Assembly (NCBI GenBank): GCA_018384465.1
Contig: JAHAYQ010000125.1
Span: forward strand, 1 to 42,909
DNA from: Myroides sp.
Lineage (GTDB): Bacteria > Bacteroidota > Bacteroidia > Flavobacteriales > Flavobacteriaceae
Length of the DNA stretch: 42,909 nt
Reading direction: 5' to 3'
A program made the position numbers and the translations under genes. The notes below the pieces were generated by a model, which worked only from the letters and a program-made list of their open reading frames with translations, was not told the origin of the DNA and did no database searches. Shown one piece after another: positions 2,160-39,358 of the stretch (positions within the stretch are counted from its first letter, which is position 1; each line of letters starts with the position of its first letter).

Positions 2160-4157
2160 TTATTTCTGCACCAAATGCTGCAAGTCAGGATCGTTTTTGA
2201 TACGTTCTAATTCCTTTTCCACAACCTCAACGATATCCTGTTTTATCTGTTTATAATTGTTTTCTATTTCTTGCTTCATATTGTCTACCCCATTTTCATC
2301 AATAAAGGATAATATCTGCGGTATCTTCTTATAGGCTTTAGTCTCGGCTAAAACCTTATCATTATCCACTACAATTTCAGCATGAAAGATTTTCTGTTCG
2401 ATACGCTCCTCAAAGTTATCCGAAACTGCTCCTACGAACATACCTTGTGTCAACGTTGAAATCTTAGAAGCTGGAATCAAGCTGTCTAATTGTGTGGAAA
2501 TAGAAGTTGATGTATCATTTCTATTGATCGATATGCTCTGACGTTTTTGCAAAACTTTACCAAAACGTTCTGAAAGACTTTTTGCTGTTTCACCAACTAC
2601 CTGACCACTAAAAATATTACCTACCGTATTTTGAATTACCTTGCTTTCTTTATCGCCATAATCTCGGATCAGCTGCGAATAATCTTGAAATCCTAAACAA
2701 ACGGCTACTTTATTACTTCGGGCAGTTGCTATCAAATTGTCTAATCCTCTGAAATAAATCGTAGGTAATTCGTCTATAATGACCGAACTTTTGAGTTGCC
2801 CTTTCTTGTTGATCAGCTTCACAATTCTGGAATTGTATAGTCCCAAAGCTGCGGAATAGATGTTTTGGCGGTCGGGGTTATTACCGACACAAAGAATTTT
2901 GGGTGCTGCCGGATTGTTGATGTCCAATGTAAAATCATCTCCTGTCATTACCCAATAAAGCTGTGGCGAAATCATTCGTGATAAAGGAATTTTAGCTGAA
3001 GCAATTTGTCCTTGTAATTGATCTTGTGCACCTCCTTGCCACGCATCCATAAAAGGTGATAAATAGTTTTCCAAATCGGGATAAGAAGTCATAATGGTAA
3101 ATACATCTGAATACTTTTTGTTCAGCAATTCTATAGCGTGTGGAAAGGTACAATACTTACCATTCTCGTAAATTTTCAAAAACCAGATGATAGCCGCCAA
3201 AAGAATAATTGGAGATTCGACAAAGAAATCACCTTGTTTTTGTATCCAGCTTCTGTTTAGGTTCAGCATGATGGTATAGGCTGCTTCGTAAGCATCGGAT
3301 ATGTCGGTCATAAAATCAGGGTTGAGCGGATTGCAACGGTGGCTCTTGCGTGGATCGTCAAAATTGATGACGTAGAACTTTGGTTTTATTTCGTACTTAT
3401 CCTGATGTTTCAATAAATGATTATAAGCAATCGTAGAAAGATCGTCAAACTTGAAATCGTAGATGTACATACTAAATCCCTTTTCTATATGCTGCTTGAT
3501 ATAGTTGTTTACGACGGCATACGATTTACCCGAACCCGGAGTTCCCAAAACAATCGTTGCTCTGAAAGGGTTTACAATATTGATCCAGCCCTTGTGTTCC
3601 TTTTTATTGTACCAGAATTTGGTGGGCAGGTTTACCGAATATTCATTTTCCATCAGTTTGGTTTCCTGCATAAAACTTTCATTCTCCATATTGAAAACAT
3701 CATCCATGAGATTGTTTTTCAACAATCTGCTTATCCAAACCCCAGCCATCAGCAAAGCAATATAACCTAGTCCGATAGTCAGTATATAAAAGGATGTGCC
3801 AATGATCGGTGACAACTTTAACAGTGGCGTATTCATAAAGAACAGCACAAAACCAATGCCCAAAGCCACATAAATCTTTGACCAGGTTATCTTCTCGTTC
3901 TTGACACCTTTGGTCCCTAAACAGCTTAAAGCCAGTAACACGATTGCAAATACTTTGGTATATAAAGTATGTGTAAACAAACCAGCTGTTCGGTCAAAAT
4001 TGCCTAATATTTTATTGATTACTTTTAGTGTCCAGCCACGTTCCAGAAAGAAACCATAGCAAAACCAATAAAGATGCATCAGTACTAATAGAATACTGAC
4101 TGCTCTCATAAATGCCATTATTTTGGCTAAACCTCTTAAATCGTCTTCTCCTTGCAT
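2160..4157 (-). CDS. mobC: Type IV coupling protein (YWFCY domain, VirD4/TraG-like)
   Basis: MQGEDDLRGL start, YWFCY motif, Walker A GTPGSGKS, Walker B IIDELPT. Confidence 0.95.
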   Translation of the reverse strand: MQGEDDLRGLAKIMAFMRAVSILLVLMHLYWFCYGFFLERGWTLKVINKILGNFDRTAGLFTHTLYTKVFAIVLLALSCLGTKGVKNEKITWSKIYVALGIGFVLFFMNTPLLKLSPIIGTSFYILTIGLGYIALLMAGVWISRLLKNNLMDDVFNMENESFMQETKLMENEYSVNLPTKFWYNKKEHKGWINIVNPFRATIVLGTPGSGKSYAVVNNYIKQHIEKGFSMYIYDFKFDDLSTIAYNHLLKHQDKYEIKPKFYVINFDDPRKSHRCNPLNPDFMTDISDAYEAAYTIMLNLNRSWIQKQGDFFVESPIILLAAIIWFLKIYENGKYCTFPHAIELLNKKYSDVFTIMTSYPDLENYLSPFMDAWQGGAQDQLQGQIASAKIPLSRMISPQLYWVMTGDDFTLDINNPAAPKILCVGNNPDRQNIYSAALGLYNSRIVKLINKKGQLKSSVIIDELPTIYFRGLDNLIATARSNKVAVCLGFQDYSQLIRDYGDKESKVIQNTVGNIFSGQVVGETAKSLSERFGKVLQKRQSISINRNDTSTSISTQLDSLIPASKISTLTQGMFVGAVSDNFEERIEQKIFHAEIVVDNDKVLAETKAYKKIPQILSFIDENGVDNMKQEIENNYKQIKQDIVEVVEKELERIKNDPDLQHLVQK

Positions 4158-4217
4158 TATTTTAAATTTTAATGTTCGGGCGTGAATTTAAAGATGCTAA
4201 AGAGTGATTATGATAAT

Positions 4218-4252
4218 GTGGCAGCCGATGGCGGTGAGTGGCTGACTTTGGC
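4218..4252 (-). promoter_or_regulatory. 4xGCC 10-bp-phased operator upstream of mobC
   Basis: Minus strand GCCAAAGTCA GCCACTCACC GCCATCGGCT GCCAC, then 27 bp to TAAATTCA (4190-4183). Confidence 0.65.
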
Positions 4253-4259
4253 TTTTCAG

Positions 4260-5549
4260 TTACTTTTGCCCCCTTTTGTATTTCCGTTTTTTCTTCATCC
4301 TATTAGCGAAATCCAATTCCTCGTAATCTTCGCCCTGCGCTTCGGGCAATAATCCACCCAACGCCTCAATCAAACCATCTTCGTGTTTATCGGTATTTAA
4401 GAAGTCAAATAATTGATGAGGTTTTTCCGAAGATAAATTATCTTCATCGTTGGAATGTGATACTTTTTGTTGAGGTTGACTAGGCTCTTTAATCTCCGGT
4501 TTGATATTATTGTTCCAAAAATCATTAAAAGTATTCGCAGAAAGCTCCTTCCCCAAACGCGAACCATTCCAAACCGTTTTAGAATTGTGGTCAATAAAAG
4601 TCATTCCGTAAATACGACCAGTATCATTTCTACGCACCACAACATTAATGCCTTGTTCGCCTAATTGTTTTTTAAAGGTTTGTTCATCACTTGTAGATTG
4701 CAGGGCCATAGTAACAGCTGATTTTACAGTCTGTTTAGTTGGAAAGTTTTTTAAGTTTTCTTTCGATTTTTCAAAATGTAATTCCAATGCCGAAATTCCT
4801 GCATCTTTTCCGAATAAGGAAGCTTTAAAAGGATGACTTACTTTTTCCCCTTTATCGTTCAATGCGAAATACAATAATCCTTGTTGGAATTTACCTTGTA
4901 GTTCGCCTTCCACTTTATCTGTCGTAATATGGAACAAGGATAACAAAGCATTGTATTCACCTAAAGTTTGGAACTGATAATACTTAGGCAAATGCCGAAT
5001 AACCGAAGCAATCTGACTTTTTATATCGCCAGTTTGATAATCCACAGGACGAAAGATTTTGTCGTTCTGTTGTCGCTCCTTATCTGTTGCTGGGATTAAA
5101 TCGTGTTTTCTTTCGAGTTCACGACACACATTCATAGACCGTCTTTTTTCAAATTTATCTGAAATCTTTTTACCCTCTTCATCCACGCAAACCGATACGA
5201 TATGAATATGACTGCGATCAATATCGGTATGCTTAAAGACTACAAATGGTTGTTCACCGTACCCCATTTCACGCATATATTCTTCCGCCATTTCCCTAAA
5301 CTTATCATCATCTACATTATCCTTGGGATCAGGATTGAGCGAAATATGCAACGTATGTTTCTCGGTATTGCGGTTGGCGATGAGATAAGGAGCAAAAGAT
5401 TGGGCTAATTGTGCTACGGAATAATGTCCGTTAGCAGTTTCAATCATCTTATTGGCGAACAAAATTTGTCCATTTTCGTTCTCCACTTTCAAATTGTTAT
5501 ATGCCAATGCTCCGTATAGATTTTCGCTTCTTCCGATTTTTGCAATCAT
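4260..5549 (-). CDS. mobB: Relaxase (MOBP-type)
   Basis: ALAYN catalytic Tyr, HISLNP, HTDIDRSHIHIVS HUH motif. Confidence 0.95.
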   Translation of the reverse strand: MIAKIGRSENLYGALAYNNLKVENENGQILFANKMIETANGHYSVAQLAQSFAPYLIANRNTEKHTLHISLNPDPKDNVDDDKFREMAEEYMREMGYGEQPFVVFKHTDIDRSHIHIVSVCVDEEGKKISDKFEKRRSMNVCRELERKHDLIPATDKERQQNDKIFRPVDYQTGDIKSQIASVIRHLPKYYQFQTLGEYNALLSLFHITTDKVEGELQGKFQQGLLYFALNDKGEKVSHPFKASLFGKDAGISALELHFEKSKENLKNFPTKQTVKSAVTMALQSTSDEQTFKKQLGEQGINVVVRRNDTGRIYGMTFIDHNSKTVWNGSRLGKELSANTFNDFWNNNIKPEIKEPSQPQQKVSHSNDEDNLSSEKPHQLFDFLNTDKHEDGLIEALGGLLPEAQGEDYEELDFANRMKKKRKYKRGQK

Positions 5550-5557
5550 TTCTGCTG

Positions 5558-5992
5558 TTATTTTTTCAGATATTTCACATCAAATTCTTCCGTTATCCGG
5601 ACAATTTCTTTAAACAAGGCGGTCATTTCAGCCGTATGTTTTTCCAATTTATAAAGATATGCTGCTGCCTTTTTCTCCGAAAAGTTCTTATACAATAGCT
5701 TCACAACCTGATTATAATTCACGCCAATAGATCGAAATTGACTGTGAAACGAAGTCAATCGCATATAAAAATCAATTGTTCCTTTGTCTATTTTAATCGA
5801 TTTCATCGTCTTATCGAAGATACAAGACGTTATAAAATGTGCCTTAACCTGCATACCCGACTTTTCAAATAAGTCAAGAAAACGGGCATGCTCTTCCTCA
5901 TTAAAGGAAATCGTGTACCGGATTTTAGCGGGGTCGTTTTTAAGAGGACGGCCTCCCTTTTTTAACTGCTTTCTGCTGTTTTCATTCATCAC
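5558..5992 (-). CDS. mobA: Relaxosome accessory (RHH) protein
   Basis: GGRP start, IGVNYNQVVK motif, directly upstream of relaxase. Confidence 0.9.
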   Translation of the reverse strand: MMNENSRKQLKKGGRPLKNDPAKIRYTISFNEEEHARFLDLFEKSGMQVKAHFITSCIFDKTMKSIKIDKGTIDFYMRLTSFHSQFRSIGVNYNQVVKLLYKNFSEKKAAAYLYKLEKHTAEMTALFKEIVRITEEFDVKYLKK

Positions 5993-6053
5993 TAATCCAT
6001 TTATAATTTACACAAAACCCTGACTTCGGAAGGTGTTTTTCAGCTCCCAGCAG

Positions 6054-6150
6054 GGCAAGTTGTTTTGAGCATCGGAAATCTTTTCGAGATGCTCAAAACA
6101 CAACTTGCCGTGTTCTGGTGAACACAAAAATCCGCCCTTCGGGACGGATT
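6054..6150. other. Probable oriT (inverted-repeat cluster)
   Basis: IR GGCAAGTTG-TTTTGAGCATC...GATGCTCAAAACACAACTTGCC (6054-6109) plus hairpins at 6110-6125 and 6129-6150, between divergent mobA and traA. Confidence 0.75.
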
Positions 6151-14984: not shown

Positions 14985-14994
14985 AATTTCGGGT

Positions 14995-16606: not shown

Positions 16607-16611
16607 TGTTC

Positions 16612-16698
16612 AACATAAAAATTTAAAAACGATGAAACCTGTTCCGTGCAACGGAACACGCTTCATCACAATTAACAATAAAATTAAAAACGATGAAA
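16612..16698 (+). repeat. Direct repeat of the traN translation-start region flanking a hairpin
   Basis: AAAWTTAAAAACGATGAAA twice, 61 bp apart; between them GATGAA-ACC-TGTTCCGT-GCA-ACGGAACA-CGC-TTCATC. Confidence 0.75.
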
Positions 16699-17586: not shown

Positions 17587-17606
17587 TAACCTTTTAAATT
17601 ATAACG

Positions 17607-18167: not shown

Positions 18168-18176
18168 AATGTAAAA

Positions 18177-21860: not shown

Positions 21861-21964
21861 TTAAACGATTACTATTCCATACAGTACAAAAAATCTAAAG
21901 CTTTTAATGTCATTAAGTATGTATATATTGATATGTCAATACCAGAAAAACAACTTATATAATT

Positions 21965-22000
21965 AAAAAAAACAGGGATTTACCTTTTTGGAAGTCCCTG
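21965..22000 (-). terminator. Terminator after acr3
   Basis: CAGGGATTT...AAGTCCCTG stem with T-run on minus strand. Confidence 0.65.
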
Positions 22001-22019
22001 CCTTACTGAGCAATAAAGT

Positions 22020-23054: not shown

Positions 23055-23060
23055 TATTCT

Positions 23061-23669: not shown

Positions 23670-23682
23670 AATCGTATTTTGA

Positions 23683-24138
23683 TTAACAACAGCCTGATCC
23701 TGGTGCACAGCTATTGGATTTTGATTCGCTCACTTGCGCTAGACTAGGAATACCACAAGCATCTTGTGCTAAACAAGCTGTAGTTTTGTTCGTTAAAACA
23801 AAATTCTTGCCATTGAAATCTAATCCGAATTTTCCAATGGTTCCGCTTTGATACTCTACTTCAATCTCGTGATCACCGATATTCAGTTTTGTTTCGGATA
23901 GCTCGATGATATGTAATAGCTTGCCGGGTTTTAGTCTGTGCTCATAATCATCTGCATTCCACAACTGGAAGTTTACAGTATTCTCTGCACGAGTTACTCC
24001 ACCACAATCAATGAAATTTTTAATAATTTGACCTACTTCGGTAACGTGAAAGTGTTCCGGTACAAATGTTCCGTCTTCTAATTGAAATTCAACATTTTCT
24101 AATGTTGGAAGGATTTGTTTGATTTCTGATAGTTTCAT
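23683..24138 (-). CDS. DUF6428-like ars-associated protein
   Basis: VPEHFHVTEVG, FIDCGG, TACLAQDACG, C-terminal CAPGSGCC. Confidence 0.8.
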   Translation of the reverse strand: MKLSEIKQILPTLENVEFQLEDGTFVPEHFHVTEVGQIIKNFIDCGGVTRAENTVNFQLWNADDYEHRLKPGKLLHIIELSETKLNIGDHEIEVEYQSGTIGKFGLDFNGKNFVLTNKTTACLAQDACGIPSLAQVSESKSNSCAPGSGCC

Positions 24139-24168
24139 ACTATTTTTATTTAAATTAATTTTTAATGA

Positions 24169-24184
24169 ATCGTTATATTACGAT
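24169..24184. promoter_or_regulatory. Putative ArsR operator (internal)
   Basis: Near-palindrome ATCGTTATATTACGAT, similar to the copy at 24560. Confidence 0.65.
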
Positions 24185-24204
24185 GTTACTTTGCAAAAAA
24201 ATGC

Positions 24205-24534
24205 CTAACAACATTCTTTTAAATCAATGTTCTGGGCAAAAAAGTCTTTGAATTCTTCGGAAAAATCCTTCCATACTGTATCGTTGATACAATAACAAAC
24301 AGATTTTCCTTCAATAGTGCCTTGAATGAGTCCACTAGTCTTGAGTTCTTTTAAATGTTGAGAAATAGTAGCTTGTGCTAATCCTAACTCCTCAACTAAA
24401 TCATTACAAATACATGCCTTTTGGTTTATGATATATTGTAAAATAGCTAATCTTGCCGGATGAGCTAGGACTTTAAACATAGTTGCTAGCGTATTCTTCT
24501 TGTCACTAAATAATTCTGATTTCGTGATACCCAT
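24205..24534 (-). CDS. arsR: ArsR/SmtB-family repressor
   Basis: LAHPARLAIL, ACICNDL, LAQATISQHLKELK, C-terminal CC. Confidence 0.95.
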   Translation of the reverse strand: MGITKSELFSDKKNTLATMFKVLAHPARLAILQYIINQKACICNDLVEELGLAQATISQHLKELKTSGLIQGTIEGKSVCYCINDTVWKDFSEEFKDFFAQNIDLKECC

Positions 24535-24902: not shown

Positions 24903-25712
24903 TCAGGCGACTTTGAGGGGGTGGGTTTGGAAGTTCTTCAGATTAAGAAAAAAACCTCTATTTTCGGTCATTCCATTACGAAACAAGCTCCACAACAAAG
25001 AACAACCCATTTGAGCCAATGTTGCATTGATGTATAAATCCTGTTTTTCCAATGCTTCGGCAAGTGAGCAACTTGGCGTATCGTCCGCTTGTTCGGACTG
25101 TTTCAATAGTTCGCCAAATTCATCGGTAACCATTGGCAGGCTTGCCACCGTTTCGTACTTTTCGGAATTGGGTTGTTTTACCGTTCCGATAGTGGATAGT
25201 ATTACTTGTCCTGTATGTTGGCTATTGCCAAAGTCTAACCAATATTTGGGTTCGTCCCGATGGTGTCTGCGGTCACTTAACTCTTTTAGTATTTCAGCAA
25301 CGCCAAACCTCGCCTTTACATTGTCCACACAAGTAATGTAAATCGTTGATTGTGCATTTTCGGGAAATCCACCCAACGCAGTGCGTTCAAACTTTTGGGT
25401 TTCGGCTTTCCAATTTGTACCCATAAACCGATTGACACGGTTTATCAAAGCTACCGATTTGTACAAGCCTATTTCGCTTGGTGCAAAACGCTGTCTGCCC
25501 AAATTGGCTTCCGTGATAATATCATCATCCCACAAACGGATTTGCAATCCTGCGTGTCCCAATGTTATTAAACTGTGGTTCATTTCCATTAAAGCGGTCA
25601 GAACCTTTGAACCTGTGCCACCTGCACCAATAAGGTTTACCGAAATTGGATTGGTGGGATTGAGCAGGTAATTGTCCGTAAAATGAATGGCTGTTTTTGT
25701 CGTTTCCATCAC
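24903..25712 (-). CDS. PRTRC-system ThiF/E1-like activating enzyme
   Basis: LIGAGGTGS, DDDIITEANLGRQRF, KSVAL, TCVDN, WLDFGN, DDTPSCSLAEALEKQDL. Confidence 0.92.
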   Translation of the reverse strand: MMETTKTAIHFTDNYLLNPTNPISVNLIGAGGTGSKVLTALMEMNHSLITLGHAGLQIRLWDDDIITEANLGRQRFAPSEIGLYKSVALINRVNRFMGTNWKAETQKFERTALGGFPENAQSTIYITCVDNVKARFGVAEILKELSDRRHHRDEPKYWLDFGNSQHTGQVILSTIGTVKQPNSEKYETVASLPMVTDEFGELLKQSEQADDTPSCSLAEALEKQDLYINATLAQMGCSLLWSLFRNGMTENRGFFLNLKNFQTHPLKVA

Positions 25713-26434
25713 AATAGATTTTTAAGAGTTTTGTTATTCTTTTTTAATACTTCTTTCGGAAAGATTTTATCGGTATTGATTAACTCATTCCAAAGGTTTA
25801 CACAATTGCCTTTAATCGGACTTTGTCCTCCCAATAAGTGACTGAAATAGCTGTTAAAAAAATAGTCCTCCCAAGCTTTAGTAAATTCCTCAACCGAAGC
25901 CGAATTTTTAATTTCAACATTTACCGTACCCATACAGACTTTGCCGTCTTCATAGATATTGAAAAAGGGTCCATAATACAATTTTGTATTATTTGTGGGT
26001 CTTCGGTCGCTTGCAAGGGCAAACACACTCAAACTGTTTTTACTCGCTTTCCAAAGCATTGGCGGTACGTGTGCTTTACCGTTCGGAATATCCAAACCAT
26101 TTACAAAATACAGTTGCCTTTTTTGTGCTTTAGTGTACCAGATGACCGTGCCTTTTTCCGTACTCGGATTAAGGTGCAGAATGTTTGTCGGCAAAATTCC
26201 GTTTGCCTTTAAAAAGGCTTTGTCCTTTTCTTTTTGGGTATGAAGTGACTTTGCCAATATATTTGCTTCCCTCACGGTCAATGGGTGGGCATTGATTGGA
26301 TTTCCGTTTTTGTCCATATCAAAATGCTCTACATACACCTCTGTGTTCGCTCCTTTGGTTTCATAGAATACCAAAGCGGATTTGGGGTGGTATAATGTCC
26401 CGAAGTCTTTTGTTATATCAGTTATTGTTTCCAT
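25709..26434 (-). CDS. PRTRC-system protein B (prokaryotic E2 family D)
   Basis: PFFNIYEDGKVCMG with putative catalytic Cys, WEDYFFNSYFSH; adjacent to ThiF. Confidence 0.88.
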   Translation of the reverse strand: METITDITKDFGTLYHPKSALVFYETKGANTEVYVEHFDMDKNGNPINAHPLTVREANILAKSLHTQKEKDKAFLKANGILPTNILHLNPSTEKGTVIWYTKAQKRQLYFVNGLDIPNGKAHVPPMLWKASKNSLSVFALASDRRPTNNTKLYYGPFFNIYEDGKVCMGTVNVEIKNSASVEEFTKAWEDYFFNSYFSHLLGGQSPIKGNCVNLWNELINTDKIFPKEVLKKNNKTLKNLL

Positions 26435-26446
26435 GATTTTCGGTAT

Positions 26447-27601
26447 TTAAAAGGCGTTTAATATGTCGCATAACTTATGTAGTAGTTCAAACAATCGGCT
26501 TTCAAAACAAAGGTTGTTAGTGGTTATATCTTTGCCGTTAAACATTTTTTTAATAATGGGTTCTTCTATTTGTCCGTATTCCTGTATTTCATTGTTGACC
26601 GATTGTATCAATGTTTCATTGAGCCAACCTTTGTGATCAGCATAAAAGGATATGTACTTTTCCATTCCGATAATGTTGTCCATATCTTCTTCAGATACTT
26701 CTCCATTGAGTTGGGCATTCCGGAATACATTTTCATTCGGGTAGGTCTGATATAGTGCAAAAGCTTCTTTTACTACTGTCAAACATTCCCTGTCAAAATT
26801 GTCTTTTACTTTAAAACTTTCAATCCGTTGTTCAAATACGGTCAGATTGATACGGTTATAAATCCGTTGCTCAATATAATCCCCGATAAATTCGGCTTGT
26901 TTGATTTCTGATAAATAAACTTCGGTTTCTTCCGTATAATCGTCCTGTTCAACCCAATCGTTCATCATTTCGTACATCCAATAGAGATAGCTTGCTTCCT
27001 GTCTGTAATACGGAATATCGGCTATATGGTACAGATAAGCACAAGCGGACAATAACAAATGGGCGTTTCTTTTCCGCTTACGGTTGTGCAACATTCGGTA
27101 CAACGAAGCAACGGGAATGTAAAAAAGTGTTGCCCCTGTATTGTAGCGTTCCTCACTTACAAAATAAGTTTTCTTACTATCCTGTACCAAACGTATTTCT
27201 TCCCAATTTAAAACACGTTGTTTTAGCTTCTCTTCCATATCCCACGTAGCCAATGCCATATTATAGGGATAGGGAAATTGTTGGGTTTCTATCGGTGCTA
27301 TTTGGTAATGTTTGGCAAGATTGGAAAGGGACTTATAAAAATCCCTCTCCGTTTTTGCTGTTTTCTTACAAGCCTGTACGGATTGTTCCGCTTTCAGTTT
27401 AGGCAGAAACGTACACTTTAGAATACCATTGGTAGCATTGCTATCGGTACGGATTTCTGCTTGTCTTTTCGTAATTGGTTTGCATCCTTTGGTCTTTGCA
27501 TCCAATTGGCGAACTCGCCCAACTGTCGGTGCAATTGCCGTTGTCGTTGCTGTGCGGGTATTGTGATTGTTCCCGATAGGATATGTTTGTGCATAGTTCA
27601 T
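26447..27601 (-). CDS. PRTRC-associated helical protein (occupies the protein F position)
   Basis: 384-aa ORF between the Ubl and E2 genes; family assignment by synteny only. Confidence 0.7.
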   Translation of the reverse strand: MNYAQTYPIGNNHNTRTATTTAIAPTVGRVRQLDAKTKGCKPITKRQAEIRTDSNATNGILKCTFLPKLKAEQSVQACKKTAKTERDFYKSLSNLAKHYQIAPIETQQFPYPYNMALATWDMEEKLKQRVLNWEEIRLVQDSKKTYFVSEERYNTGATLFYIPVASLYRMLHNRKRKRNAHLLLSACAYLYHIADIPYYRQEASYLYWMYEMMNDWVEQDDYTEETEVYLSEIKQAEFIGDYIEQRIYNRINLTVFEQRIESFKVKDNFDRECLTVVKEAFALYQTYPNENVFRNAQLNGEVSEEDMDNIIGMEKYISFYADHKGWLNETLIQSVNNEIQEYGQIEEPIIKKMFNGKDITTNNLCFESRLFELLHKLCDILNAF

Positions 27602-27618
27602 TGCTTTAAATATTTAGA

Positions 27619-27837
27619 TTAACCTTTCGTTCCCATTACACTCTCAAATTTGTATTCAACTGCATCATCCTTGATTTGTGGTGCAGATATTTTTGCCGTT
27701 GTGAGTATGGGGTACATATTGGCGTAAAAATTCATCACGGCTTCCACGCTCCAACGTGGTTCGGGGTCGGTCAGTCTGATGTCCTGTCCTTTATCTTTGA
27801 GTATAAATACTCGTTCTAATTGCGTTGCTAATAACAT
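27619..27837 (-). CDS. PRTRC-system protein C (prokaryotic ubiquitin-like)
   Basis: 72 aa, RVF...LTDP...VMNFYANMYPILTTA, C-terminal GTKG. Confidence 0.9.
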   Translation of the reverse strand: MLLATQLERVFILKDKGQDIRLTDPEPRWSVEAVMNFYANMYPILTTAKISAPQIKDDAVEYKFESVMGTKG

Positions 27838-27856
27838 AATTGCTCGTTTTTAAATA

Positions 27857-28501
27857 TTAATATTCTGCATCTTCTTCGTCCTCTTGGAATAAGTCCTCGT
27901 CCTCATTTTGCGCATAGAGTTCATTTACCTGCTGTTCAAATTCGGTTTCCTGGTTCGGTGGTTCGGGTTGGGTTTCTTCCGTTGCTCCGAAAAGGCTCGG
28001 TGTTCCAAACTTGTCAGATAAGGAGGTTTTACGTTTACGTATCTCGTCCGCTTTTTCGGGAAACTCGGCTATGTCGGGAACTTTTATCCACGCATCACGG
28101 AATTTACCTGCTTTTTCAAGTTCGTCTACCTTTGCCATGCCGTCCTTAAACTTCTTGTCTTTGGCTTCTTTTTCCTTTTTCGCTTTCTCGGTTTTTTCTT
28201 TCTCCATTGCCGATTGCTTTTTGACTTCTTCCATTTGTCTTAGAAATTTTTCCATATCCACCATTACGCCCGAAACGGTTTTGATAGGTGCTTTTATCTG
28301 CTCAAAAAATCCCTCATCAAACTCTTGGGGTGTGGCGTTAAATGTCAATGGGGGAATAAGGTTTTTGGCATTATCTCCGCATTGTTCGTTGTTGAGCAGT
28401 ATCGATACGATAAGGTTATTTTCTGCTCCTTTGGAAATATTCAGTTGTAATACTCCTGTAAAGTCCAACTGTTGTATCTGATTGAAAAAATTAGTATTCA
28501 T
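27857..28501 (-). CDS. PRTRC-system protein E
   Basis: N-terminal FF...PLTFNATPQEFDEGFF, coiled coil, PSLF, acidic tail. Confidence 0.85.
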   Translation of the reverse strand: MNTNFFNQIQQLDFTGVLQLNISKGAENNLIVSILLNNEQCGDNAKNLIPPLTFNATPQEFDEGFFEQIKAPIKTVSGVMVDMEKFLRQMEEVKKQSAMEKEKTEKAKKEKEAKDKKFKDGMAKVDELEKAGKFRDAWIKVPDIAEFPEKADEIRKRKTSLSDKFGTPSLFGATEETQPEPPNQETEFEQQVNELYAQNEDEDLFQEDEEDAEY

Positions 28502-28513
28502 CGTTTTGAAATT

Positions 28514-28708
28514 TTAAGGGTTGTTTACTTGTTCTCTTATTGCTGTCAGTTTCTCATATAAGTCCGTCCAATAGACTTTTAGTCTTTTGTCAAACTCCGA
28601 AAAACTTTTGTCTTCGTGTTGGTTTTCTGTGCATTCTTCCGCTATGCGGATGGCTTCGTCAAGATTTGGTATTTCGAGACGGCAACCGTGTAAATCTGTT
28701 ATTTTCAT
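28514..28708 (-). CDS. Small hypothetical protein
   Basis: 64 aa; start overlaps the upstream stop codon; co-oriented in the operon. Confidence 0.75.
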   Translation of the reverse strand: MKITDLHGCRLEIPNLDEAIRIAEECTENQHEDKSFSEFDKRLKVYWTDLYEKLTAIREQVNNP

Positions 28709-29181
28709 ATTGATGCTATTTTGCGTTCCAATAGGGTTTCCAGTATTTCACAATCGCTGTCGTAGATTTCACCTTCAAAAGAATAGGTATCAGTTTCTTC
28801 ATCAAATTGATACCTGTCAAAATCCTCATCTTCCAAATAAATATCTGTGAGTAGCTTGTCAGAAAATATTGCCCTACCATATATAAGGTTGCTCATTTCC
28901 TCATAATCCTGTACGAAATTCACGTGGTAGTATTCTGCTATCGCTTGTACTACCTCAATATTGGGCGACCATTTTGTTTCGTATTGAAACATTCCTATAT
29001 CCCCCTCGTTCCAATAGATGTTGAAGAAATACCCACCGTTTTCATCTGTGATAAAATCGGGTAATTGTCCTCTTTCTGTTTGTTCTTCCTTTTCCTTCAT
29101 TGCTTGGAAAAGCTGTTGTATCTGTGTGATTGCTTCGGGATTCCCCTCGAAAACAATCGTATTACTGCACCAATTTGCCAT
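28705..29181 (-). CDS. DUF1281/YubB-like ferredoxin-fold acidic protein
   Basis: MANWCSNTIVFEG start, YETKWSPN. Confidence 0.75.
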   Translation of the reverse strand: MANWCSNTIVFEGNPEAITQIQQLFQAMKEKEEQTERGQLPDFITDENGGYFFNIYWNEGDIGMFQYETKWSPNIEVVQAIAEYYHVNFVQDYEEMSNLIYGRAIFSDKLLTDIYLEDEDFDRYQFDEETDTYSFEGEIYDSDCEILETLLERKIASI

Positions 29182-29202
29182 TGTAATTTTATTTATTCGT
29201 TA

Positions 29203-29304
29203 CTATATAATATTGTCCTGTTCGAAATTCCGCACCTTTTCTTCGGCTTCCTGTATCGTTCTTCGGATATTCGCCAGTCTTTCAGGTGTAAAAGGCTTGA
29301 CCAT
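29203..29304 (-). CDS. Candidate 33-aa small protein (not in ORF track)
   Basis: MVKPFTPERLANIRRTIQEAEEKVRNFEQDNII fills the only large gap in the operon; tandem TAG TAA stops. Confidence 0.45.
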   Translation of the reverse strand: MVKPFTPERLANIRRTIQEAEEKVRNFEQDNII

Positions 29305-29316
29305 AGCCACATTGAT

Positions 29317-29721
29317 TTATATAAGGTTTTTGCGATCTATGAACTGCTCAATCTTTAAAGCGGTCTTACGGTTCTGTTCTTCGGCATATTCCAAAGCCTT
29401 TTTCTTGATTCTGAACCTTGCACCGTCCACGTTCCAACGTACTTTTATTCTATGAATGGTGGATGGGGTACTGTATGCATCGTATGTCGTGCCTGTTATT
29501 TCCTGCTCTTTTTCAACCTTGACAACTTTAATATATACACCTTGCTGTTCTACGTTGGGGTAATATGTAGAAAGCAAAAGATTTTGAGCCTTGTCAAAGA
29601 TTTCAAATCGGACAAAATCTTTATCTTCCAATAGGATACGGAACAGTTCTTTCATGTGAAAATTCCAATTCATCAAAACCCTTTCTTCGTATTTTTTATA
29701 TGTTATGATACCAATATTCAT
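29317..29721 (-). CDS. Hypothetical protein
   Basis: 134-aa ORF co-oriented in the operon. Confidence 0.75.
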   Translation of the reverse strand: MNIGIITYKKYEERVLMNWNFHMKELFRILLEDKDFVRFEIFDKAQNLLLSTYYPNVEQQGVYIKVVKVEKEQEITGTTYDAYSTPSTIHRIKVRWNVDGARFRIKKKALEYAEEQNRKTALKIEQFIDRKNLI

Positions 29722-29737
29722 GATAATTGATTTTAAT

Positions 29738-29763
29738 GGCTACCACCGATTAAGGCGGTAGCC
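29738..29763 (-). terminator. Hairpin after DUF932 gene (weak terminator or mRNA-stability element)
   Basis: GGCTACCACC-GATTAA-GGCGGTAGCC; no clean T-run. Confidence 0.45.
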
Positions 29764-29772
29764 TGTGGTTAT

Positions 29773-30846
29773 TTAATTAAGGTTTAGGATTTCTGCACCG
29801 TCCGTTGCAAAAGAAGTACATAAGTCAAATGCTTTCTGCGATTTCAGTTGAGCCGTTCCACCTAGTACAATGCTTTGTAGTTTGGCTTCATCGTTTTTGT
29901 AATTGCGTACATTTTGGTAGTAGCCTGTGACAGCGTTGTACGCTCCGAACAAAGTACCTTTTGTGGTGTCCATTTGTTGCGTATCGCTTAGCATTGCATA
30001 CGCAAAAGCATCTTCAACGGTGTTTTTAAACACGGTAGAAACTTCATCTTCCACACCTTTTTTAAGTAAATCCAACGTTTCTTTATTCGGGCAAAGTGCC
30101 AATTGAATTAGCTTTTTAACCTCTTGGTCTGTTACTTTTACCTTAGTCCAACCATTGAAGATACTTTCTAGCTGTGTGCTTAACGTATTCGCTAATCCCA
30201 TAATTTTATGAGCATTTTCAATACGTTGTTTTGCTCCCGATGTGTGTTTAATACGGACTACATTAGTCATACTGCGTAATGAGGCATTCAGCGTGTTTTG
30301 GCATACAATACGGATAGGCGTAAAAGCGGCTGTGATACTGCCCGAACCATCGTGCGAAGTTGTGAGGAAGATATATTTTTCTGTCACGTCATCGCCATTG
30401 CCAACACGGATATAATCGGGTAATTTGGCTGTGATAAATATACGTTCGCCATTACCTAATGCTCCTGCGGTTTCGTATAGAATACCCTCGCCACCACCTA
30501 CAATAGCATCAAAGAAATTAAAGGCTTCACGGTTTTGTACAATGTGGTAATCCTTACCGACTACACCCAATACTGCATTGTTATCAGTGCGTATGTTGGC
30601 AAAATAGTTGGGTACTTCCAATTCGTTACTGCCTATTTCGATACCGCTAGCTGTTTCGATAATACCCGAATCTTTGGTAAATAGTGGACTTTTTACGACT
30701 TCATAGTCTAAACCTGCGTGCTTGATAGCTTCTGCGCTTGTTGGGTATTGCTCTACGATTTGCCCCAAACCGTGCCACGCTTTTTGTTGAACGCTAAAGA
30801 ATGAATAACGTCCTGTTTTCTCGTTGAAATTGATGTTGTGTGCCAT
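29773..30846 (-). CDS. DUF932 phage/plasmid-like protein
   Basis: MAHNI, AWHGLG, YETAGAL, TSHDGSGS, TPIRIVCQNTL, GAYNAVTGY. Confidence 0.9.
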   Translation of the reverse strand: MAHNINFNEKTGRYSFFSVQQKAWHGLGQIVEQYPTSAEAIKHAGLDYEVVKSPLFTKDSGIIETASGIEIGSNELEVPNYFANIRTDNNAVLGVVGKDYHIVQNREAFNFFDAIVGGGEGILYETAGALGNGERIFITAKLPDYIRVGNGDDVTEKYIFLTTSHDGSGSITAAFTPIRIVCQNTLNASLRSMTNVVRIKHTSGAKQRIENAHKIMGLANTLSTQLESIFNGWTKVKVTDQEVKKLIQLALCPNKETLDLLKKGVEDEVSTVFKNTVEDAFAYAMLSDTQQMDTTKGTLFGAYNAVTGYYQNVRNYKNDEAKLQSIVLGGTAQLKSQKAFDLCTSFATDGAEILNLN

Positions 30847-30891: not shown

Positions 30892-31284
30892 TTAGAATGG
30901 GAGGTCGTCTTCTGTTTCCAATGCTGTAACCTTGATACTTTTCGATTGTGTAGAAGCTTGTGTAGTTTCTGCTCGCTTACTACCTCCGTGCAGTTTGATT
31001 TGCGAGGTATGGAAATTCAGTCCTGCTCTTAATTCTCCGTCATTACCTACCCACGCTCTTGTACTTACTCTGCCCGATAGTTCTACCAAAGTGCCTTTTG
31101 TGAGTAGTGTGGCTACCTTAGCAGAAATCCAATAAGAGCAGTCGAAATAGGTGGTTTGCTCAATGCGTTCGCCCTGCTTGTTTTTGTAGCTGTCGTTGGT
31201 CGCTACTGAAAAATTTACTACTTGTTTGTCCTGTGACGTGGTGCGTACTTCCGCATCTCTTGTCAGTCTTCCGATGATGTTCAT
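30892..31284 (-). CDS. ssb: Single-stranded DNA-binding protein
   Basis: IIGRLTRDAE, FSVATN, KGTLVELSGR, C-terminal DDLPF; ATG at 31284. Confidence 0.93.
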   Translation of the reverse strand: MNIIGRLTRDAEVRTTSQDKQVVNFSVATNDSYKNKQGERIEQTTYFDCSYWISAKVATLLTKGTLVELSGRVSTRAWVGNDGELRAGLNFHTSQIKLHGGSKRAETTQASTQSKSIKVTALETEDDLPF

Positions 31285-31416
31285 GATTTCTACTTTTTTA
31301 CGTTTTTGAATTTGTCCCGATTTGATTTTTTTAAAATTTATTCGGAAATGAGAGGTGGTGCTGAAGTTTCGTTTCACTTTTTCACCATTTTCAATGTTTA
31401 TTTTTCCCATTTCTGA

Positions 31417-31645
31417 CATTTTTTTTATTCGTTTAAAGAGCCGGAGTATGCTTTGTTTCGTTTCACGAGCATAAAAGGTTCGTGTTTAGCAGCAACAAGG
31501 TTTTGGCAAAAAAATACGACCCGAATGGGTGGAGATTATTTTGCAAACCCGAAGGGCATGACCTTTTTGCTGTGTTAAGAACACGGAAATACCTTTGCTC
31601 TTGAAATGGGACAAAACAGCATACTGGCTCTTGAATAAAAAAATG
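31417..31645 (+). promoter_or_regulatory. Long imperfect fold-back, candidate single-stranded (Frpo-like) promoter for ssb operon
   Basis: ~85-nt complementary arms; right arm holds TTTG-N20-TACCTTTG (31566-31597). Confidence 0.7.
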
Positions 31646-31903
31646 AAGTGGAAGTAATGAAAATGACGTTACACAAATGGTCTATGTGATTACAAAGTCT
31701 GCTCACTTGCTTGACCGTATTTTTTTCTTGTGTAAATAAGTGGCTTGGAGAGCCACAGAAAGGGTATTGAAGAAAATATTGAAGTGGGTACTGAGAGGTG
31801 TTTTCTCAATATCCTTGACCAAGGATCCGATCAAAGCTCTTTTATGTGCGGTGGGATTAGCAAAGGATAAATAAATGTGCTTTGGGGATAAAAAATAAGG
31901 TGT

Positions 31904-31932
31904 AAAAAAAGCAGGATCGTCAAATCCTGCTT
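31904..31932 (-). terminator. Terminator after xis
   Basis: AAGCAGGAT...ATCCTGCTT with T7 on minus strand. Confidence 0.8.
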
Positions 31933-31953
31933 AATTCATCTTTTCTTAATCGT

Positions 31954-32235
31954 TTAACTGCCATCAACTCCTTCCAGCAATTTCCGAATATCTTCGTAAC
32001 GATAGTACATCAATCCACCAATTTTAGTGTAGGGTAATGTTCCATTTAGCCGAAGGTTTTGAAGTGTGCCAGCTGAGATTCCTAATAATTTGCGCACCTC
32101 ATAGCTTTTTAACCATTCCTTTGGTTCCTGTCCCGATTTTCTCATATAAGGTGAATATCTTCTAATTTCTTCAAAAAGTTCTTTTTTAAAACTTTCAAGA
32201 TCCTCTCGGGTAATAAGTTCTACTCTCATTTGCAA
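31954..32235 (-). CDS. Excisionase-like HTH_17 protein
   Basis: WLKSYEVRKLLGISAGTLQNLRLNGTLPYTKIGG; next to integrase. Confidence 0.9.
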   Translation of the reverse strand: MQMRVELITREDLESFKKELFEEIRRYSPYMRKSGQEPKEWLKSYEVRKLLGISAGTLQNLRLNGTLPYTKIGGLMYYRYEDIRKLLEGVDGS

Positions 32236-32305
32236 TTCCTTTAAATATTAATAATTTCATGAGGGGCAGAACAGCCTTCTGTTATCAATTCTGCCACTAT
32301 GAATA

Positions 32306-32375
32306 CAAATGAACTGAAAGTAACCAAAGACTTAAACAAACTGGTATCCAATGGCACCATTTGGCTGCGAAAGGC
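32306..32375 (-). promoter_or_regulatory. 4xGCC operator and -7 element upstream of xis
   Basis: Minus strand GCCTTTCGCA GCCAAATGGT GCCATTGGAT ACCAG, 27 bp, TTCATTTG. Confidence 0.65.
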
Positions 32376-32424
32376 ATGTAATACCCTGCGTATCCTTAAA
32401 AATATACACACCAATTGCATTAAG

Positions 32425-33666
32425 CTAACCTTTTGAAGCCATTCGTTTCCTAAGGTTCTGCATATCTTCGCTAAGTTTGTGCTCTACAACTTTCGCATAG
32501 ATTTGTGTAGTACGTATCGAAGTGTGTCCAAGCATCTTACTAACAGATTCGATCGGAACGCCGTTACTCAAAGTTACAGTTGTAGCAAATGTATGTCTAG
32601 CAAGGTGGAAGGTGAAATTTTTATTAATTCCACAGATTTCAGCAATCTCCTTTAAATAACCGTTCATGCGCTGATTGGAAATGACTGGAAAAAGTGTACC
32701 TTTTGCTAAAGCTACGGGATGATCTCTATATTTTTTGATCAATTGGACCGCCTCTGGTAAGAGTGGAACCCTAACCGTCGTGTTCGTTTTTTGTCGGTTG
32801 GTCATTAACCAGTCCCGACCATCGATTCCCTTAGCAATGTTCTCTTGGGTTAGATTGAATATATCAATGTAGGCAAGCCCTGTGTGACAACTGAAAAGAA
32901 ACATATCAAGTACAGATTGCAAGCGTTCAATTTTAAAACTTTTTTTGCTCAATACCTTTAATTCTTCCTTTGTAAGATGCCCTCGTTCTACTTTGTCGAA
33001 GTGGAGTTTATATTTGGAAAAAGGATCTTTTTCCAACCAGTCCATCATAACAGCCATATTAACCATTTTCCGCAAACGCTCCATGTGCTTCATCACTCCA
33101 TTATTATTAAGAGATTTATGATGATCAATCGACTCATAATTAATAAGAAAGTTTTCGAAATCCAGAATAAACTTATAATTGAGTTCATCCAGTGTTATAT
33201 CACTTTTACGATATTGATGCTTTATAAACTTTTTGAGATAACTTTCTGTAGTGTAATAGTTTTTCATGGTGCCTGGAGCAAGTTTTGTAATAGCTACTTG
33301 CTTATGATATTCAATAACCTTTAGCAAGGTCATTGCTTCCTCTATATCTTCACCAAGGTATTTGGCTTTAACAGCATCGACAGAAACCACTTTGTTTTGC
33401 TGTATCAATTCCTGATAGCTATCAAAGATCAAAGAGCGCACCTGTTCCATGTGGCTGTTCAATTTTACGATTTCTTGCCGTTTCCCTTTTGCTCTTCCTT
33501 TTGCTTCATCCCAATTGTTGATCGATACTTTGCTTTTTAAGGAAATTTCAGTTCTGCGACCGTTTACTGTAATCCTTGCATAAACAGTGGCCGTCTCATC
33601 TTTCTTGTTCTTGGGCAACCGTAACACGAATTGAATCCCAAAGGTGTTTTTACTCTTCATATCCAT
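32425..33666 (-). CDS. int: Tyrosine integrase (Bacteroidetes type with N-terminal arm-binding domain)
   Basis: YARITVNG arm domain, TGLAYID, RQKT, HLARHTFAT, LGH...TTQIYA. Confidence 0.96.
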   Translation of the reverse strand: MDMKSKNTFGIQFVLRLPKNKKDETATVYARITVNGRRTEISLKSKVSINNWDEAKGRAKGKRQEIVKLNSHMEQVRSLIFDSYQELIQQNKVVSVDAVKAKYLGEDIEEAMTLLKVIEYHKQVAITKLAPGTMKNYYTTESYLKKFIKHQYRKSDITLDELNYKFILDFENFLINYESIDHHKSLNNNGVMKHMERLRKMVNMAVMMDWLEKDPFSKYKLHFDKVERGHLTKEELKVLSKKSFKIERLQSVLDMFLFSCHTGLAYIDIFNLTQENIAKGIDGRDWLMTNRQKTNTTVRVPLLPEAVQLIKKYRDHPVALAKGTLFPVISNQRMNGYLKEIAEICGINKNFTFHLARHTFATTVTLSNGVPIESVSKMLGHTSIRTTQIYAKVVEHKLSEDMQNLRKRMASKG

Positions 33667-33955: not shown

Positions 33956-34033
33956 TGGTCGGGGTGGCAGGATTCGAACCTGCGACCTCCTGCTCCCAAA
34001 GCAGGCGCGATGACCGGGCTACGCTACACCCCG
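33956..34033 (-). tRNA. tRNA-Pro(TGG), CCA encoded; probable ICE integration site
   Basis: CGGGGTG acceptor stem, anticodon loop TTTGGGA, GGTTCGAATCC T-loop, ACCA end. Confidence 0.97.
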
Positions 34034-34075
34034 AATTAAAGGTAGTAATAAGATTATAATTTTAATGAACTACTG

Positions 34076-34159
34076 CGGAGAGACAGGGACTCGAACCCTG
34101 GCATCGGTTTCCCGATGACAGATTAGCAATCTGCTCCATTACCGCTCTGGCACCTCTCC
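34076..34159 (-). tRNA. tRNA-Ser(GCT)
   Basis: GGAGAGG acceptor stem, GCAGA-TTGCTAA-TCTGT anticodon arm, long variable arm, GGTTCGAGTCC. Confidence 0.96.
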
Positions 34160-37320: not shown

Positions 37321-38784
37321 ATGTTAGACGGTTCAAAAATTTCATCCATTTTACAACGTTCACCCAGCGTGGATTTGCTAAAAATGCGAAATAGAGAATT
37401 GATTTTGGTCTTTTTGGCTGATCAATTCGCAGAGAAACATCGCATTTTATCTTCAGAGATTATACATTCTCGTTTAACGGATTATTTGGAATATCGTCAA
37501 GTAGAAAATGACGAAGAAACAGACATTCAGGTTTTTGATTCGTACGAATTAAAAGCTAAAAAATACATTACCGATTGGACCAATCGTGGTTTTTTAACGA
37601 ACTTTCAGACCGAAAATGGAGAAGTATTTTACGAACTTTCTTCTCATACAAGTAAAACGTTGGATTGGATTAACAGTTTAGACAAAGACGAATATGTCGG
37701 AACGGAATCAAAATTCAAAACCATTGTTACTCAACTGAAAGAATTAGTCGAATATTCGAACGATAACAAAGAACAACGTTTGGCAATTTTGGAAGAACGT
37801 AAAAAAGAAATCGAACACGAAATGACTCATTTACGTTTGGGTGAATCTTTAAAAGTGTACGAAGATTTCGAGATTATTCCACGTGTTAATCAAATTACCC
37901 AAGCGGCTAAAGAATTACTTTCTGACTTTAAGGAAGTAGAAGATAATTTCAAAACTATTACGAAAGAAATTTACCAACGTCATAACGAAGGAACCTTATC
38001 TAAATCAGAGATTTTAGATTTTACGTTTAATTCGTTGGATAGCTTAAAAGAAAGTCCACAAGGAAAAAGCTTTTATGCGTTCTGGAATTTCTTGTTGAAT
38101 CCTTCGCTTCAAACAGAATGGGATAAATTAACGCAAGAATTGTACGCTACCTTATCGCAAAAAGAAATTGAGATTCAAGATGCTTATCTAAAAAATATGA
38201 AAAAGCATCTGCACGCGGCTGGGCAAAAAGTGTACAAAGCCAACGATAAAATGGCGGATAAACTGAGTAAAGTGATTCGTGAAACCCAAGTGTCAAATGC
38301 AAAAGCCACGAAGAAAACGATTCAGGACATCAAAAAATCATTGATTAAAATTAGTCAACAAAAAGATTCTCCTGATATTTCGTTAATGGTGGATGATGGG
38401 ATTAATATCCATTTGCCTTTTGACCGTAAATTAACGATGGAACAAACCCAAGAAGTTATTTATGATGCACATCCAAAAGTTGCCGAATCGGACATCTCGA
38501 AATCGGAACATTTAGAAAAGATTTTCAATAAATACGCAATTGATAAACAAGTTATTCGAGATCGAATTAACGAGCAATTAGCGACTAATTCTGAGTTAAA
38601 TCTAAATCAAATCATCGAAAATTCGGGTGGTTTACAAAAAGGTTTACCCGAACTTTTTGCTTTTATCGCGTTAAGTAACGAGTACAATCACGACAAAAAC
38701 GATGCAGAATTACAAGAAATTGTATTCAACAAAGCAGAACAAAAATCAATACAAATTCCTAAAATTACCTTAAAGTATGAGTAA
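37321..38784 (+). CDS. jetA: Wadjet JetA / MksF-like (DUF3375)
   Basis: WTNRGFL, GTESKF, LLSDFKEVEDNF, SPQGKSFYAFWNFL, GLPEL; first of three overlapping genes. Confidence 0.88.
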   Translation: MLDGSKISSILQRSPSVDLLKMRNRELILVFLADQFAEKHRILSSEIIHSRLTDYLEYRQVENDEETDIQVFDSYELKAKKYITDWTNRGFLTNFQTENGEVFYELSSHTSKTLDWINSLDKDEYVGTESKFKTIVTQLKELVEYSNDNKEQRLAILEERKKEIEHEMTHLRLGESLKVYEDFEIIPRVNQITQAAKELLSDFKEVEDNFKTITKEIYQRHNEGTLSKSEILDFTFNSLDSLKESPQGKSFYAFWNFLLNPSLQTEWDKLTQELYATLSQKEIEIQDAYLKNMKKHLHAAGQKVYKANDKMADKLSKVIRETQVSNAKATKKTIQDIKKSLIKISQQKDSPDISLMVDDGINIHLPFDRKLTMEQTQEVIYDAHPKVAESDISKSEHLEKIFNKYAIDKQVIRDRINEQLATNSELNLNQIIENSGGLQKGLPELFAFIALSNEYNHDKNDAELQEIVFNKAEQKSIQIPKITLKYE

Positions 38785-39358
38785 TTTAGAACAACATATC
38801 AAACCCTATTCTAAAGCGATTGTAAAGCTTTTAAAACAGCCGATTGAGAATCATCAATCCCTTTGGCAAGATGTTTTAAACTACCAAGTGGAAATTCAGA
38901 ATTATTTGAATTTAATTGGATTAGAATTAGTGGTAAAAAAAGACGAAGGATTTGCTTATTTACGCGAATTAGAAGACCGTGAAGGAAATACAATAGGTCT
39001 GGTTTCTAAACGTAAAATTGGATTCGAAGCTTCGATAATTTTGGTGGTCTTACGCCAAAGTTTAGAAGAATTCGACCAAAATCCTACGCAATTTGATGTA
39101 AGTGAGAAATTCATCACCTATCAAGAAATCAAAGAAGAAGTCGAATTATTCTTACCCGAAACATACAACAAAGTCAAACTTTTAAAAGACTTAGATCTTA
39201 ACATTCGCCGAATTGTGGATTTAGGTTATTTAAAAGAAATTGATAAAAATGAGTTTGAAACTAAATATCAAATTCATCGTATCATCAAAGAAAAAGTGAC
39301 GTTGGATCAATTACAAGAATTTAAAAACAAATTAGAGGAATATGTTGAATCTATTTAG
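38777..39358 (+). CDS. jetB: Wadjet JetB / MksE-like (DUF4194)
   Basis: IGLELVVKKDEGFAYLRE, SIILVVLRQ; overlaps jetA and jetC. Confidence 0.88.
   Translation: MSNLEQHIKPYSKAIVKLLKQPIENHQSLWQDVLNYQVEIQNYLNLIGLELVVKKDEGFAYLRELEDREGNTIGLVSKRKIGFEASIILVVLRQSLEEFDQNPTQFDVSEKFITYQEIKEEVELFLPETYNKVKLLKDLDLNIRRIVDLGYLKEIDKNEFETKYQIHRIIKEKVTLDQLQEFKNKLEEYVESI

Follow-up and report, generated by a model that had tools for sequence, protein, structure and literature searches.

A conserved strand-specific hairpin upstream of ssb in a Bacteroidota integrative conjugative element is a likely promoter of folded single-stranded DNA

The element and the hairpin in front of ssb

How ssb is transcribed in an integrative conjugative element (ICE) of Myroides is the question raised by the gap that separates this gene from an excisionase-like HTH gene. 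The gap is occupied by a long hairpin (31386-31665), and the intact housekeeping promoter box within it faces away from ssb as long as the DNA is duplex. Our analysis suggests, with a probability of about 0.6, that this conserved and strand-specific hairpin is a promoter for the host housekeeping polymerase, active only when the + strand is single and folded, most likely while it enters a new cell by conjugation. The parts of this reading differ in strength: a fold-activated promoter is quite probable, and its action on the incoming strand is somewhat better than an even bet. Direct support comes from the fold with its covariation and strand preference, from the intact -7 box of the distal arm and from the broken copy of that box facing the gene.

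The window, that is, the whole stretch of 42,909 nucleotides analysed here, holds most of a Bacteroidota ICE within its 43 kb. Its main features are the following.

2160..5992, - strand: mobC, mobB (MOBP-type relaxase) and mobA (NF041326, NF041325, NF041324, PF03432), on the same strand as ssb
6052..6112: inverted repeat upstream of mobA, a candidate oriT, both ends of which bear a CTTG^C copy
6663-18629, + strand: tra genes
20793-24534: cargo for arsenic resistance (ArsR-type regulator, Acr3, ArsO), lying between tra and PRTRC
24903..30846, - strand: block co-oriented with ssb, its synteny examined in 80 loci
30892..31284, - strand: ssb, the first long gene behind the hairpin (PF00436, TIGR00621)
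31740..31756, - strand: hairpin resembling a terminator (by consensus match only), between xis and the element
31909..31932: terminator-like hairpin closing the int-xis unit, both strands matching
31954-32235: excisionase-like HTH gene (xis)
32425-33666: integrase

The block behind ssb codes for DUF932, three small proteins (one DUF1281_C), PRTRC E and C (Prok_Ub), an unnamed protein of 384 aa, B (E2-like) and ThiF (E1-like). A previous reading of the sequence alone had proposed that the hairpin drives SSB, anti-defence and ubiquitin-like proteins; the SSB, ubiquitin-like, E2-like and E1-like genes are indeed there, but profile searches and PADLOC found no anti-defence families among the proteins of the ssb block. 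The two terminator-like hairpins would, judging from their sequence, stop read-through from the int-xis unit into ssb, and a hairpin and T run similar to those at 31909..31932 recur in 30 of the 51 loci that carry the same hairpin upstream of ssb (class A, below). Two tRNA genes lie directly past the integrase (33959-34159), a likely integration site, and PADLOC placed Wadjet jetA, jetB and jetC at 37321-42716, outside the ICE.

All the pieces from which the sequence-only reading had built its hairpin were found in place: the outer CATTTTCA at 31386-31393 and TGAAAATG at 31658-31665, the left arm at 31417-31501, the head pieces ACCCGAATGGGT at 31519-31530 and CCCGAAGGG at 31548-31556, and the TTTG at 31566-31569, separated by a 20-nt spacer from TACCTTTG at 31590-31597. 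Folded as single-stranded DNA, the + strand reaches -61.8 kcal/mol (z -9.3, with none of 200 shuffles as low), the - strand fold is weaker (-55.4, z -6.6), and 31386-31665 is the strongest GC-corrected fold among the 280-nt windows of the whole 43 kb. The possible extension of the stem by CATTTTCA and TGAAAATG forms in the fold of the window, but drops out of the consensus structure of 35 homologues. The hairpin is made up of the following parts.

31417..31419, - strand: invariant ATG in an A-rich context at the stem base, opening a leader ORF of 30-45 codons
31417..31502, + strand: left (proximal) arm, expected to serve as template once the promoter folds and almost without variation in its transcribed part
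31467..31481, + strand: partner of the -7 box, with a bulge of 3-5 nt; as duplex toward ssb it reads AACCTTTT, a broken -7 box
31503..31559, + strand: branched head, 24 of 34 columns invariant
31560..31573, + strand: -33 region and spacer helix of the distal arm, where most of the covariation lies
31590..31598, + strand: within the distal arm, the Bacteroidota sigma-A -7 box, TACCTTTG(C), which in duplex points away from ssb
31602..31645, + strand: remaining distal arm, variable, its pairing kept largely through G.T

The ATG at 31419 is present in 51 of 51 class A loci. The frame of the leader that it opens is not conserved, and it is in frame with ssb in the window; an N-terminally extended SSB begun at this ATG was rejected as a general feature, the frame being shared and open in only 3 of 51 loci. 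The GAA loop of the second head hairpin was likewise discarded as a sign of DNA folding, because, by the known stabilities of such loops, C-GNA-G on one strand is a UNCG-type loop on the opposite one. Between the hairpin and ssb, class A loci share a further conserved block, GAGAGG(A/T)GGTG on the + strand (31337-31360).

Conservation of the fold and the promoter boxes

The homologue set comprised the best 80 of 321 relatives of the ICE SSB; this hairpin is present in 50 of these loci (class A) and another one in 27 (class B), and the remaining 3 are truncated or interrupted. In 35 of 35 distinct class A sequences the strand that folds lower is the template strand of ssb. Pairing of the arms is conserved as well, with 98.3% of cells paired in the alignment of these 35 homologues, and changes affecting both partners are seen in 8 of 65 pairs, where shuffles average 4.1 and none of 500 is as high. 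Six of the eight changes fall in the spacer helix (6 of its 13 pairs). The class A homologues are related, so that such counts overstate independence, but on a tree built from flanking genes three pairs of the spacer helix change state at least 13, at least 10 and at least 5 times.

Sequence conservation across the 35 homologues is distributed unevenly over the stem. The -7 box is invariant in 9 of 9 columns and the spacer helix is free (2/8 and 1/8 columns invariant), and 48 of 53 columns are invariant in the transcribed arm against 20 of 52 in its partner; a fixed box and transcribed arm facing a loose partner is the asymmetry expected of a fold-back promoter. The partner of the -7 box occurs in five variants, every one of which retains the bulge. 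Mismatches are biased too: in an alignment of the arms that is neutral with regard to strand, the window has 7 G.T and no A.C, and G.T exceeds A.C in 35 of 35 class A sequences. This count was used because the one taken from the + strand consensus structure (184 G.T vs 4 A.C) is biased.

Class B consists of a hairpin of different sequence in the same slot (27/80 loci, e.g. L005, L049, L060, L069, L023 and L100-L103). Nine of its 46 pairs covary, one of five measures lies below its shuffles, and a -7-like box sits in a bubble, exact as TACCTTTG in L100. At locus L038 unrelated sequence that contains an ORF, possibly an insertion element, appears to interrupt a class B hairpin just behind its opening bases.

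The right arm had been described as holding an exact housekeeping promoter, and this description stands for the invariant -7 box but not for the -33 box, since the exact version with its spacing (TTTG-N19-21) occurs in only 6 of 80 ssb loci and in 3 of 59 clusters of the distant family described below. What is conserved at -33 is a paired TTG, 17-23 nt upstream of the -7 box (53/59 clusters, vs 49 of 263 control sites in the genome). The CCTTG found in 20 of the 35 homologues has become CCTTT in the window, where a TTTG lies at 31566-31569 in its stead, so that the exact TTTG is an accident of this lineage and was dropped as evidence. According to PMC7366714, the -33 motif was not recovered from the Flavobacterium johnsoniae data. 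The two-box pattern alone gives 3 matches in the window where 1.6 are expected, and 21 of 100 shuffles reach 3; its significance therefore comes from conservation.

By the published definition of the Bacteroidota -7 box (PMC9723704, PMC7366714), which places it at -12 to -5 (PMC9723704), TACCTTTG lies on the anti-sense strand 278-321 nt upstream of ssb in 50 of 50 class A loci, and start sites of B. thetaiotaomicron (PMC7366714, supplement 3) show it to be a genuine and frequent -7 box, 4-5 nt upstream of the start. In duplex this box points away from ssb and the left arm has no consensus toward the gene, the gene-facing AACCTTTT having 2 mismatches, which agrees with the sequence-only reading. 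An ordinary promoter of double-stranded DNA was also looked for: a sense TAnnTTTG within 450 nt of ssb was found in 0 of 80 loci (three with shorter flanks), compared with 138 of 253 among host ORFs preceded by a long gap (crude ORF calls), a search that would miss a duplex promoter toward ssb driven by an activator or an ECF sigma factor. Within 31200-32500 a single sigma-70-like site (TTGACA/TATAAT) was found, and it is not part of the hairpin. The B. thetaiotaomicron table of start sites (PMC7366714), from a strain that may not carry the hairpin, returned nothing informative for guessed hairpin motifs. Sequencing runs searched for signs of expression were contigs throughout, one of them on record as RNA; none contained half of the sequence words, and the four that were aligned show presence only.

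In the mechanism that we propose, the + strand, which is the template strand of ssb, would be single and folded, likely as the strand entering a new cell. Folding would restore a double-stranded promoter whose non-template arm bears TTG (-33) and TACCTTTG (-7), and the bulge opposite the -7 box would ease melting. RNA polymerase would start near 31466, pass the ATG at 31419 and meet ssb about 180 nt later, and the transcript would continue from the short leader ORF through ssb and DUF932 to the PRTRC ubiquitin-like block. The same transcription may also prime the second strand, and it would end with the return to duplex, where the intact box faces away from ssb and, as far as its sequence indicates, may give a short divergent RNA. 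All these transcription steps are modelled on the precedent of F and IncI1 (PMC9849209, PMC12672017, PMC11541004, bioRxiv 10.64898/2026.01.09.698686).

Like Frpo1/Frpo2 (ssp1a/b) of F and ssi/class 1 of IncI1 (PMC9849209, PMC12672017, PMC11541004), the hairpin is a long imperfect stem-loop of the template strand upstream of ssb, with boxes rebuilt by folding, co-oriented genes behind it and a predicted switch-off in duplex. Unlike them, it has -33/-7 boxes of the Bacteroidota instead of -35/-10 boxes and a conserved branched head, occurs in phage records too, and belongs to an ICE with a MobABC relaxase in which it lies 25 kb from oriT behind the tra genes. Probably working in the manner of Frpo but lacking sigma-70 boxes and a leading position, it is set apart here as no member of that group, and the best reading is that it would be the Bacteroidota counterpart of Frpo, a comparison of architecture and boxes, not of sequence. 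Enterobacterial single-strand promoters in general also comprise several unrelated hairpin classes with one job, as class A and class B may, stand upstream of anti-restriction genes and suggest by analogy a possible roadblock role; they differ in their sigma-70 boxes, in their enterobacterial hosts and in being verified by 5' RACE.

The sequence-only reading knew of no description of such an element with -33/-7 boxes, and our literature search for a Bacteroidota single-stranded DNA promoter, in which subscription papers and bioRxiv supplements were poorly covered, found none either. The accessible parts of PMC11541004 and PMC12282955 make no mention of such a hairpin in Bacteroidota, and the verified single-strand promoters described in the available text of PMC9849209, PMC12672017 and PMC11541004 have sigma-70 boxes and come from enterobacterial plasmids only. 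Searches for such promoters used sigma-70 boxes (PMC11541004), so Bacteroidota versions would be missed.

A distant family sharing the branched head

The sequence of the branched head is conserved in Flavobacteriaceae, Bacteroides elements, a Cytophagales plasmid and phage records. A scan of viral and metagenome collections with the head motif alone gave 84 and at least 121 stretches, respectively; of these (L150-L354), L150-L317 were examined, and the 146 with enough flank were clustered at 85% into 76. Of the 76 clusters, 60 have an exact -7 box (TAnnTTTG) on the distal arm, in 47 of them 45-54 nt away from the head, and none of the 76 has one on the arm that faces the gene; most of the 16 clusters without an exact distal box have a near match by eye. 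The core of the box is paired by the fold in 36 of 59 clusters, and in 36 of these 36 the gene-facing copy has 1-4 mismatches. Across the 76 clusters the strand-neutral count is 288 G.T vs 169 A.C, with G.T in excess in 50 and the reverse in 13, and the strand bearing the head folds lower in 66, compared with only 10 of 34 coding windows of the ICE in which the + strand is the lower one.

In the family, 61 ORFs on the opposite strand point away from their hairpin, and 56 of them were scanned. Matches were SSB (4), DUF6943 (4), ArdA (3), RadC/JAB (3), ArdC (1), DUF932 (1) and others (4), and 36 of the 56 had no profile match. Establishment genes thus named are ssb in the window and ssb, ardA, ardC and radC behind members of the family.

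Several members stand in recognisable elements. A hairpin with the same head precedes a PcfK/PcfJ block in an element of the CTnDOT/CTn341 type (L129, NZ_OR675140.1, 49091-49470), two precede radC and ardA in a Bacteroides ovatus ICE (L128, NZ_CP081918.1, 1653-1911 and 2364-2662), and all three fold on the mob-template strand. Another adjoins the mob genes of pFTRAC01 (L367, NC_014750.1, 4600-4780), a 4.9-kb Rep3/MOBP plasmid without an establishment operon. When the hairpin was compared with 72,556 plasmids by blastn set for distant matches, only 4 records matched, all of them from Bacteroidota.

Of the long viral records with the head motif, 35 of 38 had no match to the PF03432 relaxase, and virion (tail or head) genes were found in three of the four records inspected. 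These four (G656, G657, G659 and G689) hold six family hairpins (L355-L366), all without a relaxase match; among the 50 of 117 ORFs scanned over the four records, a head protease and a tape measure protein were recognised in both G656 and G659 and a tape measure protein in G657, with no structural match in G689. A reverse transcriptase is present in G659 and G689. The distal -7 box of the six hairpins is exact in 4 and near in 2, and the template strand folds lower in 4 of 6. A search for Terminase_6N in the 38 viral records gave 4 weak matches and none over the cut-off, and is too weak to class them. Cultured phages had no match to the hairpin of the window or to one phage hairpin, and another phage hairpin matched one unverified 6-kb record.

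The relaxase-free phage records show that conjugative entry may not be the sole trigger. Tentatively, and at odds that we consider rather low, the hairpins could form one phylum-wide family of fold-back promoters with a shared branched head, carried by ICEs (including those of the CTnDOT type), small mobilisable plasmids and tailed phages; it would sense the single-strandedness of one strand and fire on the strand retained in the donor or in the cycles of double-stranded DNA phages that lack a relaxase.

Strand of transfer, other possible triggers and meaning

Whether the promoter acts on the incoming strand depends on the polarity of transfer. Tested with a relaxed form of the MOBP nick consensus (PMC3772185), Y-A-n-C-Y-T-G^Y, the + strand copy in the candidate oriT fits in 20 of 20 distinct oriTs and the - strand copy in 12 of 20, which favours the + strand as the one transferred. 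The same is indicated by the position of relaxase genes, which typically lag (PMC11541004), given that mobABC is on the - strand. The orientation of the ssb block against tra is kept in related loci, with traQ opposite in 14 of 14, and the + strand copy has the same distal sequence in pFTRAC01. Around the long repeat, the oriT region (6020-6150) also contains conserved small hairpins, including an almost invariant GACTTCGG(A/G) adjoining mobA.

The opposite polarity has its own support. Whittle et al. (2006) reportedly found that CTnERL transfers its integrase end first and its tra genes last. Combined with the gene order int..rteABC..mobC..oriT..tra and a marker about 20 kb from oriT (PMC5729914), this would make the mob-sense strand, the - strand of the window, the transferred one; papers citing the oriT work on CTnERL, CTn341 and CTnDOT (PMC5442108, PMC1976400) give no transfer direction in their accessible parts. 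The bases that follow the - strand copy on its 3' side (CCCTGCTG) resemble those of RP4 nic, and pFTRAC01 has a perfect CATCCTG^T on the mob-sense strand, opposite to the folding strand, as one of two candidate nick sites of opposite polarity between its hairpin and mobC. In the window, 25 kb with the tra genes and cargo separate the hairpin from the candidate oriT, so that it is not strictly in the leading region; only in pFTRAC01 does the hairpin adjoin oriT. PRTRC and TraN are among the leading-region families in the supplement of PMC11541004, a listing that assumes the relaxase to come last and is therefore no independent support for polarity.

The strongest alternative, though clearly less probable than entry by conjugation, is the same fold-back promoter with another trigger: the strand retained in the donor, intermediates of replication or recombination, or extrusion by supercoiling, which would make it a general sensor of strand separation. 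Such a sensor fits the phages, where members of the same geometry occur in tailed phage records without a relaxase match, as well as the polarity reported for CTnERL together with its gene order, the canonical MOBP nick motif on the opposite strand of pFTRAC01 and the accumulation of single-stranded DNA in F donors (PMC9849209). However, oriT conservation favours the + strand, ardA and ssb are cargo suited to an early need in recipients, and the phage copies could derive from ICEs or act when prophages move by conjugation. A two-strand cruciform is argued against by the strand bias that viral clusters keep (129 G.T vs 73 A.C), and the arms are probably too imperfect for easy extrusion.

It is rather unlikely that the hairpin is mainly a single-strand origin or conversion signal, either as an RNA polymerase primer for the second strand or as a stem that delays conversion, with expression secondary; such a role is compatible with a fold-back promoter, and the two are not exclusive. 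RNA-polymerase-primed single-strand origins include ssoA of rolling-circle plasmids and sso of ICEBs1, and they share with our hairpin a long strand-specific stem and the use, predicted here, of host RNA polymerase on single-stranded DNA. What sets our hairpin apart from ssoA and sso is the predicted course of polymerase, from the head out past the stem base into genes, together with a complete housekeeping -7 box and an ATG for a leader. Frpo transcripts do serve as primers for synthesis, and in F ssp2 acts as a roadblock (bioRxiv 10.64898/2026.01.09.698686), the pFTRAC01 hairpin is beside oriT without an establishment operon, and no primase gene was recognised among the tra genes of the window (L129 has a toprim gene). 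Priming, however, needs no gene behind it, yet co-oriented genes follow members of the family, several per element (two in L128); the transcribed arm and the ATG are nearly invariant, and ssb is otherwise without a sense -7 box.

Very improbable is an element acting as RNA, be it a non-coding RNA (about 31602-31930) transcribed divergently from the -7 box or a structured RNA that spans both arms, with ssb promoted separately. The distal box is a full duplex consensus with a terminator-like + strand match downstream at 31909-31932, the + strand folds well as RNA (z -9.0), and the G.T/G.U bias cannot separate DNA from RNA. But an RNA begun at the -7 box would lack the left arm and leave the pairing upstream of the box unexplained, and a + strand RNA spanning the two arms would have to start from a promoter on the 5' side of the left arm, where no box is conserved (candidates at -23 in 13 of 80 loci and at about -59 in 3 of 80); the ssb-sense RNA folds worse (z -5.9), and Rfam has no family at gathering score, its matches at E<=5 being at chance level only. 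Least probable of all is an inverted repeat that binds a protein or recombines in duplex, with the promoter box incidental, for even though the head and left arm are kept beyond what pairing requires and the head travels among ICEs, plasmids and phages, such a site gives no reason for a one-strand preference of G.T over A.C or for a -7 box that is confined to one of the arms and held at a constant distance.

If the hairpin is a promoter of the folded incoming strand, it would explain the expression of SSB, anti-restriction and ubiquitin-like proteins on the arrival of Bacteroidota ICEs, which are the main gene movers of the gut and environmental members of the phylum. The PRTRC block would then be an entry-time system whose function becomes testable, and the short motif could serve for finding early operons. 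The hairpin family would also bring the transfer polarity of MobABC elements to the fore as a question, and the copies in tailed phages would carry the mechanism beyond conjugation.
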